Source: a virus (taxonomy: Duplodnaviria > Heunggongvirae > Uroviricota > Caudoviricetes). Taken from it: a stretch of 32,124 nucleotides of DNA. The notes under the pieces are model-generated. The model saw only the letters and a program-made list of their open reading frames with translations, did not search any database and was not told the DNA's origin. The stretch covers positions 1 to 32,124 of the IMG/VR virus record IMGVR_UViG_2877953467_000004; one strand, 5' to 3'. This document shows positions 1 through 32,124 of this stretch, in pieces. A program made the position numbers and the translations under genes. Position 1 is the stretch's first letter; every line of letters starts with the position of its first letter.

Positions 1-483
1 ATGACGAAGAAAAAAGCACATAAACCTGGTTCAGCGACCATCGCGCTTAACAAGCGCGCCCGTCACGAATACTTTATCGAAGAAGAGTTCGAAGCGGGAC
101 TTGCCCTGCAAGGCTGGGAAGTTAAATCCCTGCGCGCAGGAAAAGCCAATATCAGCGACAGCTACGTCCTTCTGCGTGACGGAGAGGCATTTCTGTTTGG
201 CGCTAACATCACGCCAATGGCCGTGGCCTCCACGCATGTGGTGTGCGATCCTACCCGTACCCGCAAGTTACTTCTCAACCAGCGCGAACTGGACTCATTG
301 TACGGTCGCGTCAATCGAGAAGGCTATACCGTAGTGGCGCTCTCCCTGTACTGGAAAAATGCCTGGTGCAAAGTGAAAATCGGCGTCGCCAAAGGTAAGA
401 AACAGCACGATAAACGTTCAGATATCAAAGAGCGCGAATGGCAGGTGGATAAAGCACGTATCATGAAAAACGCCCACCGTTAA
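1..483 (+). CDS. smpB: SsrA-binding protein SmpB
   Basis: 160-aa ORF whose translation I recognise as enterobacterial SmpB; sits immediately upstream of tmRNA as in E. coli. Confidence 0.95.
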
Positions 484-702: not shown

Positions 703-1065
703 GGGGCTGATTCTGGATTCGACGGGATTTGCGAAACCCAAGGTGCATGCCGAGGGGCGGTTGGCCTCGTAAAAAGCCGCAAAAAATAGTCGCAAACGAC
801 GAAAACTACGCTTTAGCAGCTTAATAACCTGCTTAGAGCCCTCTCTCCCTAGCCTCCGCTCTTAGGACGGGGATCAAGAGAGGTCAAACCCAAAAGAGAT
901 CGCGTGGAAGCCCTGCCTGGGGTTGAAGCGTTAAAACTTAATCAGGCTAGTTTGTTAGTGGCGTGTCCGTCCGCAGCTGGCAAGCGAATGTAAAGACTGA
1001 CTAAGCATGTAGTACCGAGGATGTAGGAATTTCGGACGCGGGTTCAACTCCCGCCAGCTCCACCA
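703..1065 (+). ncRNA. ssrA: tmRNA (transfer-messenger RNA, SsrA)
   Basis: Begins GGGGCTGATTCTGGATTCGACGGG, contains the tag-reading-frame region (GCAAACGACGAAAACTACGCTTTAGCAGCTTAA) and ends with the T-arm GGTTCAACTCCCGCCAGCTCCACCA; 363 nt. Confidence 0.93.
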
Positions 1066-1188: not shown

Positions 1189-1671
1189 ATGGAAGAACTT
1201 CACTTTGTTTACATCAATGCAAATGGTCGTATCGGTGTTCACTCTATACAGAGCATCAGTTATAGCGAAAATCATATACAGGGCATTTGTAAGAACACCG
1301 ATCGAATAAAAACCTTCCGAAAAGACCGCATTCTTAAACAGTACGATTCACCAGAACAAGCCATTCAGGAGTGCGCGTCATTCCTCCCCGAAAACTACTC
1401 ACATCTCACCAAGCAGTCTGGTCCGAAAAAAAATACATTCGATGTATGTTTCACCGGATTTAAGAAAGCAGATAAAGAAAGATTGGTTGATAAGGCGAAT
1501 GAACAAGGATTAACGGTAAGAACCTCTGTAACCCAAAGCCTTCAGATGCTCTGTTGCGGTTACAATGCAGGCCCATCAAAAGTATCGGCAGCCCGGATGA
1601 AAGGCACAATCATCATAGATGAGCCTGGCTTTATACATTTTCTTGAAACGGGTGAGATCCCAGATGAATAA
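1189..1671 (+). CDS. Small two-domain protein with C-terminal BRCT-like domain; prophage cargo (moron) candidate
   Basis: 160-aa ORF with good RBS; C-terminal half (DVCFTGF...GPSKVSAARMKGTIIIDEPGFIHFLETGE) matches the BRCT pattern of NAD-ligase-type BRCT domains; visibly A+T-richer than neighbouring phage core genes. Confidence 0.7.
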   Translation: MEELHFVYINANGRIGVHSIQSISYSENHIQGICKNTDRIKTFRKDRILKQYDSPEQAIQECASFLPENYSHLTKQSGPKKNTFDVCFTGFKKADKERLVDKANEQGLTVRTSVTQSLQMLCCGYNAGPSKVSAARMKGTIIIDEPGFIHFLETGEIPDE

Positions 1672-1984: not shown

Positions 1985-3085
1985 TTATTCCATTTCAAGA
2001 TCATCAATCTTCACTTCGAGTTCAATACTGGTTGTAAAACCGTTATCCGGGCTGACGGTATGTGTCAGAGTCGTAATGGTCCATTCCGCATCATCTATCG
2101 GCTGTTTAAAACCACTGACCTTCACAGGCATTTCCGTGTAGAGATCTGCCCGCCCTTCCGCCAGTTGTAGCGAGAATGACGCAACGCCACGTTGCAGGCG
2201 TTCCCACTGCATTTTCGCTGCCCGTTCAGCGTTGCTCCGGTTGGCATAAGTGCGATTAAGTACCAGCACGTTTTCATCCGTCCCCACCAGGTAATCGCCC
2301 TGCTTCGCTTCCGGCTCTTTCTTCTGCTTCTTAGTCCTGCGCTTACGCTTCACCGTAGTGCTTTCTTTCTTCGCGGGTTCGCGGGTATGCAACCAGCTGG
2401 CAATTACCCCCGTGTAAGCTCCGCGATCTGCCAGGGTAAAGCGGTGACTGTCGCCGTCCTTACGTGTGATAGTAATCACCGGCAGTGGTTTACCGCTGGC
2501 GCTTTTGCCCTGTCCCTGCCGGATGAATAACAGATTGCCATTTTTCACCGATGCAATGGCACCGTACTGGCGCGCCAGCCGCATCAAAAAACTGCCGTCA
2601 CTCTCATTAGTCTGGTCTATATGCTCCACGGGCTTATCCGACAGGTCTTTACCCAGTGCCATCTTCAGCTTGTGCCGCGCGGCTATTTCCTTCACCACTT
2701 CCCCGATGGTGGTGTTATGCCACGATTTTTCACGGCGGGTATTCAGCGTTTCCCGAAAATCAGCACTTCGCGCCCGGATAGTCAGGCGGTCCGGTGCGCC
2801 AGTGTGTTCAATCTCGTCCACCGTGAATGCCCCTTTCGGGAAAAGCGGCTGCCCCTTCCAGCCCAGCGCCAGCGTAATGACCGCACCACGGCGCGGCAGC
2901 ACGATTTTTCCGTCGGCGTCGTCCAGCTCCAGATCAAGCTGGTCCGCTTCAAAGCCCCGGTTATCCGTCAGCGTAAGCCCCATCAGGCGTTTGTCCAGCA
3001 CAGTGGTGATATCCTTCCCCTCAATACTGATGCTGAATGCGGGAGTTTTGTTGCCTTTGTTAAGCAGTTCAGAGCTGAAATTCAC
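1985..3085 (-). CDS. D: Tail protein D (late control gene D homolog)
   Basis: 366-aa ORF at the position of gpD in the P2 tail cluster, adjacent to ogr; start (GTG) overlaps the U stop. Confidence 0.85.
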   Translation of the reverse strand: MNFSSELLNKGNKTPAFSISIEGKDITTVLDKRLMGLTLTDNRGFEADQLDLELDDADGKIVLPRRGAVITLALGWKGQPLFPKGAFTVDEIEHTGAPDRLTIRARSADFRETLNTRREKSWHNTTIGEVVKEIAARHKLKMALGKDLSDKPVEHIDQTNESDGSFLMRLARQYGAIASVKNGNLLFIRQGQGKSASGKPLPVITITRKDGDSHRFTLADRGAYTGVIASWLHTREPAKKESTTVKRKRRTKKQKKEPEAKQGDYLVGTDENVLVLNRTYANRSNAERAAKMQWERLQRGVASFSLQLAEGRADLYTEMPVKVSGFKQPIDDAEWTITTLTHTVSPDNGFTTSIELEVKIDDLEME

Positions 3086-3567
3086 GACAGCAGCCCTCCC
3101 ACCGTTTTACTGATATCGCTTAAGGCAGACGTTGCCGTATCCTGCAAATTATTCAGCTGCGCACTGAGATCACCGAACATATCGGACAGGGATTCATCCA
3201 CCCGTTTGAGCGACAGGGTAAACTCAATCCGGCGCGGCATACCATCGCGGAAAAACTCCGTTTTAGTCTGATTCAGTCCCTCAATCACATACATGCCGTA
3301 AATCGTGCCGCTGCCTTCAATCAGGGGCCATGCTTTTCCCTGTTCTGCCATCTGCTCCAGAGCCAGCAACGACAGCCTGCCGCCCGTTATCTCCGGCATA
3401 AGAACACCAGAAAGCGTCAGCATGTCGTTGTCCGGTCCCAGAAACTGCGTGGACGGACGACGGTTTACCCGGCTGTTTGCCGCATGTCGCCAGCTGCGTT
3501 GATACTGCAGTTCCTGATACGGAACGGTGCGCAGCATAAACACGTACAATCCCAGCACCATCATCAT
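3082..3567 (-). CDS. U: Tail protein U
   Basis: 161-aa ORF between the tape measure and D, conserved P2 order; overlapping stop/start junctions. Confidence 0.85.
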   Translation of the reverse strand: MMMVLGLYVFMLRTVPYQELQYQRSWRHAANSRVNRRPSTQFLGPDNDMLTLSGVLMPEITGGRLSLLALEQMAEQGKAWPLIEGSGTIYGMYVIEGLNQTKTEFFRDGMPRRIEFTLSLKRVDESLSDMFGDLSAQLNNLQDTATSALSDISKTVGGLLS

Positions 3568-7649: not shown

Positions 7650-8822
7650 TTACGCGCTGACCTGGCTGGCGAAATTCACCAGGTACTGATCGGTGATGCG
7701 CTGGCGCAGCATCAGATTTTCAAGTGGCGGCACTGGCGTGTAGTCGTAGTCGATGGTGAGTTTTCCGGCTTTAAGCGTGTCTTTGTCGTTCACCGACTCG
7801 TCCAGCCAGCAATCACCACCAATGAGATAGCCCTGACTGACCAGGCTGCGCATTTTGGCGCGGATACCTTCGATAATGTCGCGGGCCAGCGACGGGTTCA
7901 GCGGTTTGTCCACCGCCCACATGTGTGCTTCTGCCATCGTGTCCGTCAGCACCTGCGCCGTGCGGGTGTAGTTTTCGAAAGCAAAAAGCGGATCATCGCT
8001 CAGACAGCGGGAACCCCAGAAGCGGAAACCATCCTTGCGCACAAGCGTGGTGACGTCGTTCTGGTTCAGCAGACCTGCATCGGTTGCCGGGTCCTGCAGA
8101 TCCCAGAACACATCAGCAGAAATTCCGGTGACACCGTTCACGCCCACGTTGGACAGGCTTTTGTGCCATCCGGTCTGCTCATCAATTTTGGCGCGCAGAC
8201 CGAGCGCACGGGCGGTGGCATAAGCCGTTGCTTCGGCATTCAGCACCGTGTCCCAGCCAGTAAAGTCGGGCCAGATCAGCATTCCTTCACGCTGACTGAA
8301 GTTTTCACGGTAAGTGATTGCTTCCTGCACCGTCTTGCAACCATACGCTGACAGGTAAGCAAACCCACGCAGGCTTTGCGCCACGCTCAGCAACTCAGTA
8401 GCTACCGCCTTCGTGTCGTGACCTGGCACGCCGAGAATGCGCGGTTTAACGCCGAGCTGTGACTGGGCAGATAACAGGGCTTTCATGCCTGTTTTTTTAC
8501 CTTCAGCAGTCACTGCGCCGATGATATTGGTCGTGGTTTCTTCTTCCGTTTCACCCTGCGGCACACGCACAACAACGGTCACGGGTTTTGCCTGGTCAGC
8601 GATGGCATCCAGCGAACGGGCCAGCGTGCCGGACTCACCCGCTTTACCGCTGGCAGTCAGCACATCAGTGATCAGCACGGGTTTATTAAGAGGAAACATT
8701 TTTGCATCGGCATCATCGCCCGTGCAGACCATACCCACGATGGCGGTGCTCACCGTGGTAATGGATCGGGTGCCTTCGTTAACTTCAACAACGCGCACCC
8801 CGTGGTGGTAATCCTGAGCCAT
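7650..8822 (-). CDS. FI: Contractile tail sheath protein FI
   Basis: 390-aa ORF, first gene of the tail operon, good RBS. Confidence 0.9.
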
Positions 8823-8898
8823 AGTGGCGAACCTCCTGATTGGATTAGGCTTCGCCCTATGTTGAAGTGATTGTGCCTGACAAACAGCTAAGCGCAGT

Positions 8899-8916
8899 TG
8901 TACCGTTATTCACACA
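8899..8916. promoter_or_regulatory. TGT-N12-ACA dyad (Ogr-type late-promoter activator site) upstream of FI
   Basis: TGTACCGTTATTCACACA seen in sequence, centred about 85 bp upstream of the FI start codon. Confidence 0.4.
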
Positions 8917-8956
8917 AAATAACGGTATTTGTCCGCTTGCAGGAAAAATCTCTGCA

Positions 8957-8982
8957 TTTTTATAAACGTTGGTTTTGGAAGT
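8957..8982. other. Candidate Gin/Cin/Hin-type 26-bp inversion crossover site (left boundary of tail-fibre invertible segment)
   Basis: TTTTTATAAACG-TT-GGTTTTGGAAGT resembles gix/hix half-sites around a 2-bp core. Confidence 0.3.
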
Positions 8983-9267
8983 TTCCCTCAATACCAGACT
9001 TTAGGTGATGGCCAGCATATTTTTCAGCACGGCTCTGGCGCTGCGAACAGTTCCGGAATAGCCGATATCGTATTCCCTAAAGCGTTCACCACGACTAACA
9101 ATCTCACCGTAACGGCGACGCCAACATCTCAGCAACCCGCAAACTACATCGTGTCTGTAGGAACCGCTACAACAACCGGAGTGCGTTTATATCTGACGGG
9201 GGCAAATGCAGGATCAACCCCTGTCGCTGCTGCCATTGGATTTCACTGGAAAGCAGAAGGAAGATAA
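8971..9267 (+). CDS. Silent alternative tail-fibre C-terminal (receptor-binding) domain cassette, no own start
   Basis: Open frame ending 3 nt before the + strand tfa start; Thr/Asn/Ala/Gly-rich sequence typical of fibre tips; opposite strand to the expressed fibre gene. Confidence 0.55.
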   Translation, partial: GFGSFPQYQTLGDGQHIFQHGSGAANSSGIADIVFPKAFTTTNNLTVTATPTSQQPANYIVSVGTATTTGVRLYLTGANAGSTPVAAAIGFHWKAEGR

Positions 9268-9269
9268 AT

Positions 9270-9683
9270 ATGAAAGTTTTTTACAGTGCCAGCCAGAACG
9301 GTTTTTATGATGATAACCAGACTCTTCCTGCAGATGCGGTCGAAATTGCTGAGTCGCTCCGAACTGAGTTAATTAGCGCCCAGAACATAGGTGGCGTAAT
9401 TAGGCCGGGAAGTGATGGGATGCCAGTGATCATCCCATCCGCAGATTATGTCCCAGAATTAACTGAAGAAGAGCAGCGGTGGTTTGCTGAATCCAAAAAA
9501 CAGTCACTGTTGTCAGAGGCAACCAATCGAATTGGACCTCTACAGTACGCGGTCGATGCAGGCAAAGCGACGGCTGAAGAGGCCGCCGACCTGATAAACT
9601 GGCAGGACTACCGGCTGGATTTGATGCGGGTTGATACGTCAAAACCTGTCTGGCCTACGCCTCCGGGGGAACAGGCCAGTTGA
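9270..9683 (+). CDS. Tail fibre assembly chaperone (alternative, silent-orientation copy)
   Basis: 137-aa ORF starting MKVFYSASQNGFYDDN... and ending ...VWPTPPGEQ, the typical Tfa shape; convergent with and overlapping the - strand tfa by about 29 nt. Confidence 0.8.
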   Translation: MKVFYSASQNGFYDDNQTLPADAVEIAESLRTELISAQNIGGVIRPGSDGMPVIIPSADYVPELTEEEQRWFAESKKQSLLSEATNRIGPLQYAVDAGKATAEEAADLINWQDYRLDLMRVDTSKPVWPTPPGEQAS

Positions 9684-10059
9684 TATCCGGTTCGGTGCTG
9701 GTATCTATTGCTGTCACCGCATCAATATAGTCTATCCAGGCGTTAAGGCTGACGGATTCAGCATCCGTTAGCTTACGCCCCATCAGCAGCTTGGTTTGCC
9801 AGACGACAATTCGGCTGGTCGCCGCATCAATACGGGCGCGTTTTTCCGCTTCAGCCTCTGCGACTAATTCATCGTGAGATTTTACCGGCTCGGGAATATC
9901 AGGAGCAGTGAAAGTGCCATCAGCATATAACCAGCCAATTCCTACACCATCAGCAGCCGGTATTGCAACGCCATTATCAGGCGACCATTCTGATTCACCA
10001 TCCCATAAGACGACGTTCACGACGGTGTTATTTTCAATTACTGCGTATGTTTTGCTCAT
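9655..10059 (-). CDS. G: Tail fibre assembly chaperone (expressed orientation)
   Basis: ORF immediately downstream of the H stop; Tfa-like C-terminus (...INWPVPPEA); ATG at 10059 preferred over the TTG at 10074. Confidence 0.8.
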   Translation of the reverse strand: MSKTYAVIENNTVVNVVLWDGESEWSPDNGVAIPAADGVGIGWLYADGTFTAPDIPEPVKSHDELVAEAEAEKRARIDAATSRIVVWQTKLLMGRKLTDAESVSLNAWIDYIDAVTAIDTSTEPDINWPVPPEA

Positions 10060-10063
10060 CGCA

Positions 10064-11767
10064 TCACCACTCAATCATCACAATACCAGGCGCACCGTTA
10101 CCGCCATTTCCACCGCGAGCAGTTAAGGTGGCAGTACCATATTTACCACCGCCTGATCCACCACCGGAGCCGTACCCGGAACCCGCCGTGCCGTCAGTTC
10201 CCTGATCCGTTCCCGCACGACCAGCACCACCACCGCCCCCGAACGGCGACGATGCTCCAGGTGCTCCGTTACCCGAACCGACACTTAAATTTCCATCACC
10301 ACCATAGCTTCCGGTCGGGAAACCCTGCCCGTAACCGCCTCCTGGGGCAGTATTCTGTCCGTTACCGGCATTTACTCCAGGCTGGCCACCATGCAACCTA
10401 ATCAGGTCTCCAATAACCGTATCACCTCCAGCGGTAGGTGCTGACCCGGTTGCGATACTGGCAATTGAACCAATCCCGCCAGCGCCAATTGATATGTCAA
10501 TAACACTACCAGGCACAACAGTGAATTTCCTTTTTACAATGGATTCGCCGGCCCCACCCGAACCACCGCCGCCACCAAAGAATGATGAGTCACCGCCACC
10601 ACCAGAACCACCACCACCTCCACCTGCAACAGCGGAGATCCACAGTTCAGTAACGCCCGCAGGAACAATGAATCTTCCACTTGATGTAAAGGTGGCAAAT
10701 CCGGTTTCGTGCAAACCAAGGTATGCGAGAAGACCAGCTACATCCTTTCCACTCAAATTAGTCAGCGTATTGTCCAGCGGTTGTTTACCTGCCAGCGCAT
10801 TAAGCATTGTCGTGGCAAAGTTCGGATCATTCCCCAGTGCCGCCGCCAGTTCGTTCAGTGTATCCAGTGCAGCAGGTGCAGAACCCACCATTCCTGCAAT
10901 CGCCGATTTCACAAAAGCCGTAGTGGCAATCTGTGTATTGTTGACCGACTGCGCCGCCGTGGGGGCTGTTGGCGTTCCGGTGAGTGCCGGACTCGACAAC
11001 GGTGCTTTTAGTGCCAGCGCATTGTTAATGGTGGTACTGAAATTCGGATCATTGTTAATGGCTGCGGCTATTTCTTTCAGCGTGTCCAGCGTGGCTGGCG
11101 CACCATTAATAAGGGCCGTCAGTGCCGCCTGTACAAACGCAGTGGTCGCAACCTGCGTGGTATTATTCCCCGCCGCTGGCGTTGGCGCTTTGGGGGTTCC
11201 GGTAAATGTCGGGCTGGCTTTTGGCGCGTACTGTGAATGCGGGTCCGGTGCGGCAAGATGTTTTGCCATCTGATCATCCGCGTACACCTTCAGCTCCAGT
11301 GCCTTGTCATCCACATACTTGCGGGTTGCCAGCACTACAGCAGGGTCGATTTTCAGGGTGATATTGTCCGTACTGCTGGTAATCAGCACCATGCGCACGG
11401 TCTGAGTGCGCCCGCTACCTTCAGCCAGTTGCGGCTTATAGCTTTCCGGGCAGTTGCCCACGGCAATCAATGCCCCGGACTCATCAAACAAGCCCACTTC
11501 ACGTATCCACCAACCGCCCTCGTTTTCAGGGATCACCTGTTCGGCAATAATCTGGCTGCTGTTCTGCGGGTCGATATAAAGCATATTCAGCGCAGCCCGG
11601 CGTTTCTCATTTACCAGTGCCGTCTGCTTTGCGTCCGGCGTTGGCAATACTCCACCGCCATCGCCCACCGCCATATGGGTAATTTTTAGCGGCACACCGA
11701 GCGCGGCGGCGCTGGCAAGTTTCGCCGCGCCAATATCCGTCAGCAGGGTATAAAATTTTGTGCTCAT
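10064..11767 (-). CDS. H: Tail fibre protein H with internal tandem repeat and glycine-rich C-terminal domain
   Basis: 567-aa ORF; N-terminus resembles P2 gpH; two copies of a roughly 55-aa repeat (TTAFV...NDPNF); C-terminal third is Gly-rich. Confidence 0.9.
   Translation of the reverse strand: MSTKFYTLLTDIGAAKLASAAALGVPLKITHMAVGDGGGVLPTPDAKQTALVNEKRRAALNMLYIDPQNSSQIIAEQVIPENEGGWWIREVGLFDESGALIAVGNCPESYKPQLAEGSGRTQTVRMVLITSSTDNITLKIDPAVVLATRKYVDDKALELKVYADDQMAKHLAAPDPHSQYAPKASPTFTGTPKAPTPAAGNNTTQVATTAFVQAALTALINGAPATLDTLKEIAAAINNDPNFSTTINNALALKAPLSSPALTGTPTAPTAAQSVNNTQIATTAFVKSAIAGMVGSAPAALDTLNELAAALGNDPNFATTMLNALAGKQPLDNTLTNLSGKDVAGLLAYLGLHETGFATFTSSGRFIVPAGVTELWISAVAGGGGGGSGGGGDSSFFGGGGGSGGAGESIVKRKFTVVPGSVIDISIGAGGIGSIASIATGSAPTAGGDTVIGDLIRLHGGQPGVNAGNGQNTAPGGGYGQGFPTGSYGGDGNLSVGSGNGAPGASSPFGGGGGAGRAGTDQGTDGTAGSGYGSGGGSGGGKYGTATLTARGGNGGNGAPGIVMIEW
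10706..10731. other. Candidate inversion crossover site inside H (right boundary of invertible segment)
   Basis: TTCGTGCAAACC-AA-GGTATGCGAGAA; left half matches the gix-type half-site; core dinucleotide complementary to the left site core and in the same codon phase. Confidence 0.25.
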
Positions 11768-12369
11768 GGATTCACTCTCATTGTGTCAATAACATGGACC
11801 GCCCCGCCTTCATGCGCGGTGCCACCGGAAATAATCGTTTCGTTGATATACGGATAGATCGTGATTTCTTCGCCAAGATAGCTGGCGGCTCCCACCCAAT
11901 GCGGGCCGCTGGTCTGCAGATTGATGGACATGCCGATCATGTGGCGGCTACATGGTTTGGCATCGCTTATCAGTCGCTCAAGTTCCAGATAGGTATCTTC
12001 AGTGATGCCCTGGTCCTGCACGCCGATATCCAGGCGAAACGTGCCCGGTGTTTCTCCGGTCTGCCACCACTCAATAATGCGGATCAGGAATCCGAACGGT
12101 TCCACCACCCGCCGCACGGCACTGGTGGTTCCTTTATGCTGATGAATATAAAAAGCATCCTTCACTACCTGGCGTTTGACGCTTTCTGTCCAGCCCTCGT
12201 CCCAGCGATCCACAGAGAACGCCCAGGCGAGATAAGGCAGGAAGCTGACCGGACAGGTAGCCGGATTCCACAAGTCACGCAGCGGCACCTGCAAATCAGA
12301 AATCCCGCTACAGGTTTGCGCCAGTCGGCGCTCCAGTGAAGTTGAACCCGGTGGCAGCAGACTATTCAT
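11764..12369 (-). CDS. I: Baseplate protein I
   Basis: 201-aa ORF between J and H; conserved order; start overlaps the H start region. Confidence 0.88.
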   Translation of the reverse strand: MNSLLPPGSTSLERRLAQTCSGISDLQVPLRDLWNPATCPVSFLPYLAWAFSVDRWDEGWTESVKRQVVKDAFYIHQHKGTTSAVRRVVEPFGFLIRIIEWWQTGETPGTFRLDIGVQDQGITEDTYLELERLISDAKPCSRHMIGMSINLQTSGPHWVGAASYLGEEITIYPYINETIISGGTAHEGGAVHVIDTMRVNP

Positions 12370-31092: not shown

Positions 31093-32124
31093 ATGGAAAA
31101 AAGCATTAGCACATTTATGTACCTATCCGTTTTATTAGGTTGTATATTCTTATTTATAAAATATCGACTTTATGTTCTCGATCATAGAAGCCTGTTCCAA
31201 CAACCCTTGTTCTGGGCTGCAATAGGCCTACCTTTATTCACCAGCCTTTACTTTGGTTCTTTTGTCTGGATAGATAAAATACACTCTTTTAGTCTTACAA
31301 GTCACGGTTATGAGAGATTTTTAGATATCTCGAAATTACCATTACTCATCCTTGCATCTGCAGTACCTTTAGTTTCAATAGTAAACAACCTACACAGAAC
31401 CAAACAAACAGAAAAACAGATCTCAGAGGCAGAAAGGAAAAACAGGGTAGATTTATATTACAACCACATGAAATTTCATCTTGATTTATATAAAAAAATC
31501 GAAGGAAAAAGAATAGGCAGCTACTACCCGGTTCAGGAAGCTCAAGCTGAAGCAATCTACCAACATTTTATAAAACATCCACAAGAACTATATAGAAAAG
31601 CATACCCACAATCTACGCCTGATGATTCTCAACAATTAGATATTAATGAGCAATTTGTTATTGATTTACACAAATGTTGGGTAGAAATCAACGCAAGACT
31701 CAAGCAATTATCCGAGAGTGAAAATCAAATACATCCTACAGAGGAACTTTGCACAACAAAGATGAGAATATTTGTAGGAGTTATGATTATTTATGAAAAA
31801 ACTTGTAAACTGTTGTGTTTAGGTGGATTTCATTATAAAAAGTCATTTGTAATAAATGATAGTTATAATAAATACCAAGTTTATTCACCATTTTATGATT
31901 TTGGCACTCTGTACGAATCACTGCAATCCTTAGAAGAGATAACCTACGCCTTCTTGGATACTTGCAGAAATGAAGTGGTAAACTTGTACTTCCCTATAGA
32001 AGATAAAATTTTGATATATGGTGAAGGGATTCTAGAGAATTGGTTCAAGTATTCTCAGTTCTTGATCACTATAGCTTATCAACCCGCCAAGATGTCTCGC
32101 TTACCCCAGCTGAGACGCGATTGA
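31093..32124 (+). CDS. A+T-rich membrane-anchored protein of unknown function; prophage-end cargo candidate
   Basis: 343-aa ORF starting 2 nt after the int stop; three predicted N-terminal TM helices then a helical soluble domain; abrupt drop in G+C at the int stop. Confidence 0.65.
   Translation: MEKSISTFMYLSVLLGCIFLFIKYRLYVLDHRSLFQQPLFWAAIGLPLFTSLYFGSFVWIDKIHSFSLTSHGYERFLDISKLPLLILASAVPLVSIVNNLHRTKQTEKQISEAERKNRVDLYYNHMKFHLDLYKKIEGKRIGSYYPVQEAQAEAIYQHFIKHPQELYRKAYPQSTPDDSQQLDINEQFVIDLHKCWVEINARLKQLSESENQIHPTEELCTTKMRIFVGVMIIYEKTCKLLCLGGFHYKKSFVINDSYNKYQVYSPFYDFGTLYESLQSLEEITYAFLDTCRNEVVNLYFPIEDKILIYGEGILENWFKYSQFLITIAYQPAKMSRLPQLRRD

Follow-up and report, generated by a model that had tools for sequence, protein, structure and literature searches.

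A tail-fibre inversion cassette without its invertase in a P2-type prophage of Escherichia coli: most likely a locked, deletion-derived relic of a Gin-type switch

Introduction

Invertible tail-fibre segments are textbook knowledge from Mu, P1, e14 and P2-like prophages, and one more example has little discovery value in itself. The G segment of Mu with its invertase Gin, the C segment of P1 with Cin and the P segment of e14 with Pin each lie between a pair of inverted 26-bp sites that have a core of 2 bp. One site of the pair is located at the junction between the constant and the variable part of the fibre gene, and between the sites are two opposed sets of tip and assembly (U/Tfa-type) genes. 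Wild-type invertases additionally require an enhancer in cis that is bound by Fis (PMC2724282, PMC3798978). This enhancer is found about 100 bp away from a hix site, although it can work over many kilobases (PMC3798978), and in the hin system it is situated in that region of the invertase gene (PMC2724282) which is missing at the locus described here.

Also close to our locus are the P2-like prophages of E. coli, such as Escherichia phage 500465-1 (NC_049342), which has the same locus between H and FI, the same gene order and the same site sequences and positions. P2-like prophages of EPEC E2348/69 were shown to phase-vary (PMC4272514). These invertible segments carry the invertase gene between the segment and FI, and their two assembly genes overlap tail to tail by the same 29 bp as in our case.

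Here we describe a cassette that shares the sites, the site placement and the opposed gene sets with the Mu, P1 and e14 segments. It differs from them in that it has no invertase gene and, as we infer, no cis enhancer. The core is TT/AA instead of the TC/GA of Mu, the segment measures 1.75 kb compared to about 3 kb in Mu, and the tips are a Gly_rich_2 and a Gp53-like_C domain. Additionally, the inner half-sites are unlike each other (6/12), because the two modules have different origins. Relative to the P2-like segments, what sets it apart is an apparently clean deletion of 626-630 bp exactly where these have the invertase.

Results and Discussion

The window, by which we mean the whole analysed stretch of 32,124 nucleotides, contains an entire prophage, from smpB and ssrA (tmRNA at 703-1065) through to the integrase end. 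It is a P2-type (Peduoviridae) prophage of E. coli integrated at ssrA, with the late gene order V-W-J-I-H-G ... FI-FII-E-T-U-D, P2 capsid and terminase genes, an integrase and a CI repressor. This assignment is based on Pfam families of the neighbouring genes in the relatives L006 and L013 (L numbers denote the sequences used for comparison), on the RefSeq annotation of near-identical prophages and on a GPD family match. The features of the cassette are collected in Table 1. The dyad upstream of FI is a candidate for an Ogr-dependent P2 late-promoter element, presumably P_F, judging from what is known about P2 late promoters.

Table 1. Features of the tail-fibre cassette and its left neighbourhood (window coordinates).
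Feature	Position	Strand	Basis and remarks
Tail sheath gene FI (390-aa ORF)	7650-8822	-	left neighbour of the cassette; Pfam sheath families for the identical L006 gene
TGT-N12-ACA dyad	8899-8916	.	upstream of FI; read from the sequence; spared by the presumed deletion
Putative deletion junction (AATC microhomology, 3-5 bp direct repeat)	8947-8950	.	alignments to relatives
Left (invertase-proximal) 26-bp gix-like site	8957-8982	+	core TT at 8969-8970; half-site matrix; identity to the L024/L025 sites
Invertible segment, core to core (~1.75 kb)	8969-10719	.	L020 alignment in reverse orientation
Silent alternative tip (Gp53-like_C, 98 aa)	8971-9267	+	Pfam PF21882, E 1.5e-6
Silent tail-fibre assembly gene Tfa' (137 aa)	9270-9683	+	Caudo_TAP, E 1.2e-20; partner of the alternative tip
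Expressed tail-fibre assembly gene Tfa (134 aa)	9655-10059	-	Caudo_TAP, E 2.5e-20; gene call in L006 and L013
Fibre gene H	10064-11767	-	Phage_tail_fib at the N-terminus, Gly_rich_2 tip
Expressed variable H tip (217 aa, glycine-rich)	10064-10717	-	PF21722 Gly_rich_2, E 4.4e-11
Right 26-bp gix-like site	10706-10731	+	core AA at 10718-10719; inside H, at the constant/variable junction
Constant N-terminal part of H (350 aa)	10720-11767	-	PF12571, E 8e-65

Two modules of tip and assembly gene oppose each other, Gp53-like_C with Caudo_TAP on the plus strand and Gly_rich_2 with Caudo_TAP on the minus strand, so that Tfa and Tfa' converge in the 29-bp tail-to-tail overlap. The first-pass annotation of this DNA had described the plus-strand module as a promoterless fibre tip followed by an opposed assembly gene, and the open reading frames and Pfam domains bear this out. 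Indeed, the alternative tip has neither a start codon nor a promoter of its own, and no sigma-70-like site was found between 8600 and 10900. Gene callers place a free-standing 112-aa "gp53-like" protein here, which is an artefact of the orphan tip.

The silent module is free of stop codons and frameshifts. An identical Tfa' protein recurs in 35 blocks of the assembly collection, where its gene follows an expressed fibre gene in Mu-like and P2-like prophages. The module is mosaic, with 99.4-99.6% identity to modules in unrelated prophages and a mosaic boundary at 8964-8966, within the left site. The constant part of H is 94-97% identical to the H of L001, L002 and L020, with the homology to L001 and L002 beginning at 10712, and the glycine-rich tip is 98.6% identical to a silent copy in L020. 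When clustered at 90% identity, each H form is a singleton.

The left site reads TTTTTATAAACG-TT-GGTTTTGGAAGT and the right site TTCGTGCAAACC-AA-GGTATGCGAGAA. A generic inverted-repeat search did not report the two sites, the arms being only 14/26 alike, and their recognition hence rests on the half-site consensus and on homology with relatives. With up to 2 mismatches allowed, the 12-bp core pattern AAACCWWGGTTT matches the window 3 times, no more often than expected (4.2), and we therefore used a half-site matrix instead, which was built from Mu gix and the sites of invertase-bearing cassettes and from which L020, our main evidence, was left out. This matrix ranked the two sites first and second in the 32-kb window with 23.1 and 19.5 bits, while the next best site reached 7.9 bits and the best sites in 30 shuffled sequences gave a mean of 9.5 and a maximum of 15.5 bits. 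Compared with Mu gix, the half-sites match at 8 to 10 of 12 positions. The TT/AA cores occupy codon positions 2-3 in both reading frames. As the annotation had predicted, inversion at these cores is in frame, and in silico it creates an uninterrupted H of 448 aa.

The flipped counterpart exists in nature. E. coli GCA_014858085.1 (L020) carries the same P2-type prophage, with flanks that are 96.5-96.8% identical and align in forward direction, while window positions 8966-10722 align to it without gaps, at 95.7% identity, in reverse orientation. The breakpoints of this inversion are the predicted TT/AA cores, and the sites of L020, TTTTCTTAAACG-TT-GGTTTGCACGAA and ACTTCCAAAACC-AA-GGTATGCGAGAA, are the exact recombinant products. 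Its H protein (P0002) agrees over the full length, with 98% identity, with the 448-aa fusion predicted from the window and ends in the Gp53-like tip. L020 also has an invertase gene, located between the segment and the sheath gene, and the 188-aa product matches the Mu Gin structure 3UJ3 over residues 1-184 with an E value of 6e-92. The window's pair of tips was otherwise seen only in L020. Between them, the two isolates show both orientations. The proposal of a cassette like the Mu G segment is upheld by this segment, flipped at the predicted cores beside a Gin orthologue. The comparison supports assignment of the window's cassette as a true invertible fibre segment of the Gin/Cin/Pin type that has no invertase in cis.

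Three of the four half-sites are identical to those of L020. The fourth together with the core (window 8948-8979) agrees at 32/32 positions with the sites of L024 and L025, where the neighbouring invertase genes are intact. Position 5 of the outer half-site on the left is a T, which we considered as a single-origin mark of the deletion allele or as damage to the site. We rejected this, given that the same 32 bp stand beside the intact invertases of L024 and L025.

No serine recombinase was detected in the window, neither by tblastn with a Gin-like invertase (best E 2.5) nor by a six-frame profile search with 8 invertases (best E 0.73). The claim that no serine invertase is present in the window holds, and it extends to the whole prophage, which the window covers. 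An invertase is found at the homologous position in L020, L018, L014, L016 and L002, and relative to L020, L018, L002 and L014 the window is shorter by 626-630 bp, which is exactly the invertase block, the coding sequence plus flanks of 14 bp and 45-49 bp. In L020rc the block corresponds to positions 2901-3526, with the invertase coding sequence at 2915-3481. The repeats on either side of it read TAATC...TAATC in L020 and ATC...ATC in L018. We infer that the invertase block was lost here rather than gained by the relatives. The first-pass annotation had named a deletion remnant devoid of site homology as the finding that would speak against a switch. A deletion remnant is indeed what the region appears to be, yet neither site is damaged, the left one being identical at all 32 positions to sites beside live invertase genes.

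The same deletion probably also removed the Fis-dependent enhancer, which normally is located in the 5' coding part of the invertase gene. In Mu gin and in the invertase genes of intact P2-type relatives alike, a crude scan with a degenerate Fis motif did not pick out a consistent pair of sites at a spacing of 48 bp. Since an enhancer can act from many kilobases away, an unrecognised pair of Fis sites nearby could substitute for it.

Taken together, we consider the cassette to be a deletion-derived relic of a Gin-type switch, most likely locked with the glycine-rich tip expressed, and put the probability of this reading at roughly three in four. The ancestral cassette would have been a host-range switch of the Mu-G, P1-C or e14-P type, with two modules of tip and chaperone between inverted 26-bp Gin-type sites. 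The segment would have been flipped by a Gin orthologue whose gene lay between it and the sheath gene, so that H ended either in the glycine-rich tip, together with Tfa, or in the Gp53-like tip, together with Tfa'. A deletion of 626-630 bp between the 3-5 bp direct repeats would then have taken the whole invertase gene and its upstream region and, by analogy to hin and gin, the Fis-bound enhancer along with it. A segment that lacks both the recombinase and a cis enhancer most likely cannot flip any more: the late operon would express the glycine-rich tip and Tfa, while the Gp53-like tip and Tfa' would stay silent. The annotation had left the choice between an invertase acting in trans and a frozen relic. 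The likely deletion together with the probable loss of the enhancer, whose requirement in cis had not been considered there, tips the balance towards the relic. Inversion at low frequency may still occur in the source strain. The intact silent module and a Tfa' protein identical to copies in active use fit a recent deletion or continued use.

In a rival reading the switch would still work, with a Gin/Pin/Cin-family invertase supplied in trans by another prophage in the same cell, be it e14-, Mu-, P1-like or a second P2-like one. Invertases of the Din family cross-complement one another, and both modules as well as both sites are intact here, the sites matching those beside live invertases. A trans source is plausible, as 3,017 of 5,426 complete E. 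coli genomes, more than half, match at least some part of the Gin-like invertase query. In strain NCTC11023 an invertase-less P2-type cassette even coexists with another prophage in which the same segment is accompanied by an invertase. However, the invertase-less cassette of this strain is oriented as in the four other carriers. Furthermore, the Fis-bound enhancer is needed in cis (PMC2724282, PMC3798978) and its usual region is deleted here, whereas the targets in the known trans cases retained their own enhancer. The clean invertase-less junction, finally, is rare (6 of the 5,426 genomes), as one would expect of a dead end and not of a maintained strategy. We therefore regard a working trans switch as unlikely.

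The orientations among genomes, which come from very few and possibly clonal isolates, do not indicate flipping without an invertase in cis. The window's configuration has one orientation in both available copies, the source genome CP023201.1, assembly GCA_002290265.1, and the metagenome contig L027, which is 100% identical to the window over 9111-10766. Searched against the 5,426 complete genomes of E. coli and against 50,697 phage records, which do not include the source genome, the cassette matched only with its flanks and short pieces of the assembly genes, and exact-pattern scans for the invertase-less junction gave no match in IMG/VR or JGI metagenome contigs. The related invertase-less cassette of L001 shows a single orientation in all five complete genomes that carry it, and its flipped form, made in silico, is absent from the 5,426 genomes. 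The best matches to this flipped form, H125 and H126, are the same segment in other contexts; H125 (L016) and H127 (L017) were inspected and are invertase-bearing prophages.

A dependent switch would be a weaker variant, in which a co-resident Gin/Pin-family invertase flips the segment at low frequency by enhancer-independent synapsis or with the help of an unrecognised Fis pair, and in which the gix-like sites also serve as portable points of tip exchange among prophages that are not related. The mosaic boundary inside the left site supports such a role as crossover point for tip modules; as a whole, we consider this proposal rather improbable.

Alternatively, the invertase-less state could be ancestral. 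L020, L018 and others would then have gained the invertase by insertion, and the window would hold a spare module that was acquired by recombination and never was a switch. The indel could in principle have run in this direction, and a mosaic module that is almost identical to those of unrelated prophages would fit. Against this stand the left site, which is functionless without an invertase and still fully conserved, and the alternative tip, which has no start codon and lies exactly in frame for fusion. The invertase-bearing state is also about 140 times commoner at this locus (846 of the 5,426 genomes, about one in six) and is common to Mu as well, and the short direct repeats around the missing block are typical of slippage deletion. 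No independent transposition of invertase genes is known. We judge this reading very improbable. Still another reading takes the sites as a chance resemblance or a by-product of the peptide motif ..YLG(L/F)G.., and the opposed genes as a mosaic of the ordinary kind that never inverted. It might draw on the unenriched 12-bp core pattern and on fibres of invertase-free prophages that also encode AAACCTTGGTTTTGG at the same junction, but is scarcely credible, as L020 with its breakpoints at the cores already contradicts it, the outer half of the left site is non-coding yet conserved, and shuffled sequence falls far short of the matrix scores.

A locked relic of a Gin-type switch would also not be alone. 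Other decayed P2-like cassettes, namely the EC11 type (L015), WEC (L002), L001 and L019, represent partial losses of the same switch at the same locus. The L001 and L019 types have an invertase-less junction identical to that of the window. In EC11 the deletion also removed the alternative tip and part of Tfa', and of the invertase only a remnant of the HTH domain is kept. In WEC the invertase is retained, while the H and Tfa genes are truncated. The cassette of the window differs from these in that everything except the invertase block is preserved.

Conclusion

In summary, the cassette is most likely a rare decay product of a very common and well-understood phage device. The window and L020 form a natural matched pair, in which the same segment is present with and without the invertase block and in opposite orientations. 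This pair could be used to gauge how far an orphan segment without enhancer is flipped in trans. The two tips predict two host ranges, of which the prophage can probably display only the one given by the glycine-rich tip. If the cassette were instead a working trans switch, the host-range variation of the prophage would depend on a co-resident element, and if the dependent switch were true, the host range of one prophage would be controlled by another.

Results and Discussion

The window comes from an E. coli chromosome and holds a complete P2-type prophage, whose far end carries the CI repressor, the integrase and then a 343-aa cargo gene adjoining the duplicated ssrA end. Hundreds of complete E. 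coli genomes have P2-like prophages that match 93% of the first 25 kb at 96-98% identity, and the non-matching part is the fibre cassette; CP023201.1 (GCA_002290265.1), the source or a relative identical to it, matches the window with 100% identity over 8700-11800. The first-pass annotation had described a Mu G-segment-like inversion cassette here, and ORF and family matches support its layout, with the Gp53-like tip, its assembly gene Tfa' and the assembly gene Tfa as the three features between FI and H (Table). As to the cargo ORFs at the two ends, the 160-aa one gave a weak BRCT match that falls short of the Pfam cut-off (E 1e-3) and a PADLOC PDC-S48 match (E 2e-7), while the 343-aa one belongs to no family in Pfam or PADLOC; both are possibly accessory or defence genes.

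Table. Features of the prophage and its fibre cassette
Feature	Position	Strand	Remarks
smpB	1-483		chromosomal start of the window
ssrA (tmRNA)	703-1065		after smpB
Cargo ORF	1189-1671	+	160 aa; adjoins ssrA
Sheath gene FI	7650-8822	-
TGT-N12-ACA dyad	8899-8916
Annotated "gp53-like domain-containing protein"	8929-9267	+	112 aa; TTG start at 8929
Junction hairpin and T-run	8938-8956	+
Deletion junction	8947-8950		AATC
Left crossover site	8957-8982		TTTTTATAAACG-TT-GGTTTTGGAAGT
Gp53-like_C fibre tip	8971-9267	+	98 aa; without own start codon
Tfa'	9270-9683	+	Caudo_TAP assembly gene, 137 aa
Tfa	9655-10059	-	Caudo_TAP gene, 134 aa; convergent with Tfa'
Fibre gene H	10064-11767	-	567 aa; Phage_tail_fib N-terminus, Gly_rich_2 C-terminal tip
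Right crossover site	10706-10731		TTCGTGCAAACC-AA-GGTATGCGAGAA
Cargo ORF	31093-32124	+	343 aa; beyond the integrase

In-silico inversion between the two cores gives an uninterrupted 448-aa H, and querying a protein collection with this hypothetical fusion returned P0002, an E. coli protein of the same length (448 aa) with 98% identity from end to end. Its genomic context, L020 (E. coli GCA_014858085.1), is a prophage of the same type, in which the order runs H (448 aa), Tfa' (137 aa), then, on the opposite strand, Tfa (134 aa) and a glycine-rich tip fragment, followed by a 188-aa resolvase-family gene and the sheath gene. The DNA flanks of both loci align in forward orientation with 96.5-96.8% identity, and window positions 8966-10722 align in reverse orientation, ungapped, with 95.7% identity. 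A match to the Mu Gin structure 3UJ3 over residues 1-184 (E 6e-92) was obtained with the L020 recombinase, whose N-terminus, MLIGYVRVSTNDQ, includes the catalytic serine. Both L020 sites are the exact recombinant products predicted for a crossover at the window's cores. The segment is thus a real invertible segment of which both orientations exist in nature, and judged by this alignment the crossover points that had been proposed are correct to the base.

As inverted repeats of each other the two sites are poor (14/26); a generic repeat finder did not report them in the window, and the bare 12-bp core pattern is not enriched there. With a half-site matrix derived from Mu gix (from NC_000929) and cassettes with an invertase, they rank first (23.1 bits) and second (19.5 bits) over all window positions, the next best position scoring 7.9 and the maximum over 30 shuffles being 15.5. 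The core dinucleotides fall at codon positions 2-3 in both frames, as had been claimed, and the 448-aa product and P0002 confirm that inversion is in frame. The left site is undamaged, window positions 8948-8979 being identical (32/32) to the sites of two IMG/VR contigs in which the adjacent invertase gene is intact, and the remaining three half-sites are identical to those of L020. The silent tip and Tfa' module (8964-9681; to 9749 against L007) is 99.4-99.6% identical to modules of unrelated prophages (Mu-like L003, L010 and L011, the P2-like element L007 and the invertase-bearing cassette L009) but only 92% identical to the L020 allele. This homology begins at 8964, inside the left site, so a mosaic boundary falls at the gix-like site, where modules may be exchanged.

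The 3' ends of the convergent genes Tfa and Tfa' share 29 bp (9655-9683). The W-P-x-P-P motif conserved at the C-terminus of each protein is thus read from one strand of this stretch for Tfa and from the other for Tfa'. The identical overlap occurs in L001, a related cassette without invertase, and in L014 and L016; in Mu, by contrast, U and U' lie ~28 bp apart without it. In H, the constant region is a common one and is followed by the Gly_rich_2 tip (PF21722). The exact 567-aa protein is found in one genome only, and when ~15 billion proteins are clustered at 90% identity, full-length H and the flipped 448-aa form each stand as singletons; the tip pair is very rare although the locus is common. 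No sigma-70-like promoter was found upstream of the silent module. Gene callers annotate a free-standing 112-aa protein at this place, as seen in L006 and, for L001, in RefSeq; this is an artefact of the orphan gene fragment, since codons 1-14 correspond to the outer, non-coding half of the crossover site.

No serine recombinase was found in the window by tblastn or by a profile search of all six frames, run with eight invertases (best E 0.73), in agreement with the first-pass annotation, whose observation was accurately read and is confirmed in full. The missing block amounts to 626 bp against L020 (L020rc 2901-3526) and 630 bp against L018 (Ecol_542), whose sheath-side flank is identical to the window up to 8950. 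It comprises the invertase coding sequence, 14 bp past the stop and 45-49 bp upstream of the start, with short direct repeats at its two ends (L020, TAATC...TAATC; L018, ATC...ATC), where the window has AATC. The deletion ends 6 bp from the left site and ~30 bp from the TGT-N12-ACA dyad; by analogy with P2, this dyad is the putative Ogr element in the late promoter of FI. The junction creates a small, weak hairpin of six pairs (TGCAG...CTGCA) followed by TTTTTAT, called terminator-like by a scan.

Gin-type DNA invertases require Fis and a cis-acting recombinational enhancer (PMC2724282, PMC3798978); in hin this enhancer lies in the 5' part of the invertase gene (PMC2724282). The P2-type Gin orthologue gene shares 70% nucleotide identity with Mu gin over positions 2-462 and, if it is organised likewise, enzyme and enhancer would have been lost together. 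We infer the enhancer loss in this way because a degenerate Fis-motif scan, which failed in Mu gin too, located no Fis sites directly. From this joint loss it would follow that the segment is most likely locked in its present orientation: the late operon would express H with the glycine-rich tip, plus Tfa, and the Gp53-like tip and Tfa' would be silent passengers. The few available data on orientation are consistent with a locked segment. A metagenome contig is 100% identical over 9111-10766 with the same junction, the L001-type cassette without invertase has one orientation in 5/5 complete genomes carrying it, and a flipped copy without invertase occurs in 0/5,426 genomes.

An invertase acting in trans might still flip the segment, which we consider unlikely. 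It would find the sites and both modules intact, and a Tfa' protein identical to copies in use in Mu-like and P2-like prophages; moreover, the invertase query finds matching DNA in over half of the complete E. coli genomes, and enhancers are able to act over many kb (PMC3798978). Somewhat less probable again is a dependent switch, flipped by the invertase of a co-resident prophage, which would be of moderate interest if true. NCTC11023 (NZ_LS483297.1), one of the five L001-cassette genomes, provides a natural experiment on flipping in trans: it carries the same segment twice (99.6% and 99.9% identical), once in a P2-like prophage without invertase (near 1,177,787-1,179,784) and once, in opposite orientation, in a different prophage near tonB with its own invertase (L017).

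Conclusion

In summary, the cassette is the device known from Mu G/Gin, P1 C/Cin and e14 P/Pin, and from invertible fibre segments in P2-like prophages; phase variation of such segments has been demonstrated by experiment in EPEC E2348/69 (PMC4272514), and one is annotated in Escherichia phage 500465-1. Apart from the adjacent invertase and, probably, the enhancer, the window has all structural features of the family. The invertase-bearing allele occupies this locus in 846 of 5,426 complete E. coli genomes, and six have a clean junction without invertase, with two different segment contents (L001, L019), to which the window adds a third. Decay takes other forms as well: in L015 (EC11) the deleted stretch starts within the invertase gene, of which an HTH remnant is left, takes in the alternative tip and ends within Tfa', and L002 (WEC) keeps the invertase with H and Tfa truncated. 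The feature is real; it represents a rare form, most likely derived by deletion, of a switch that is very common and well understood.
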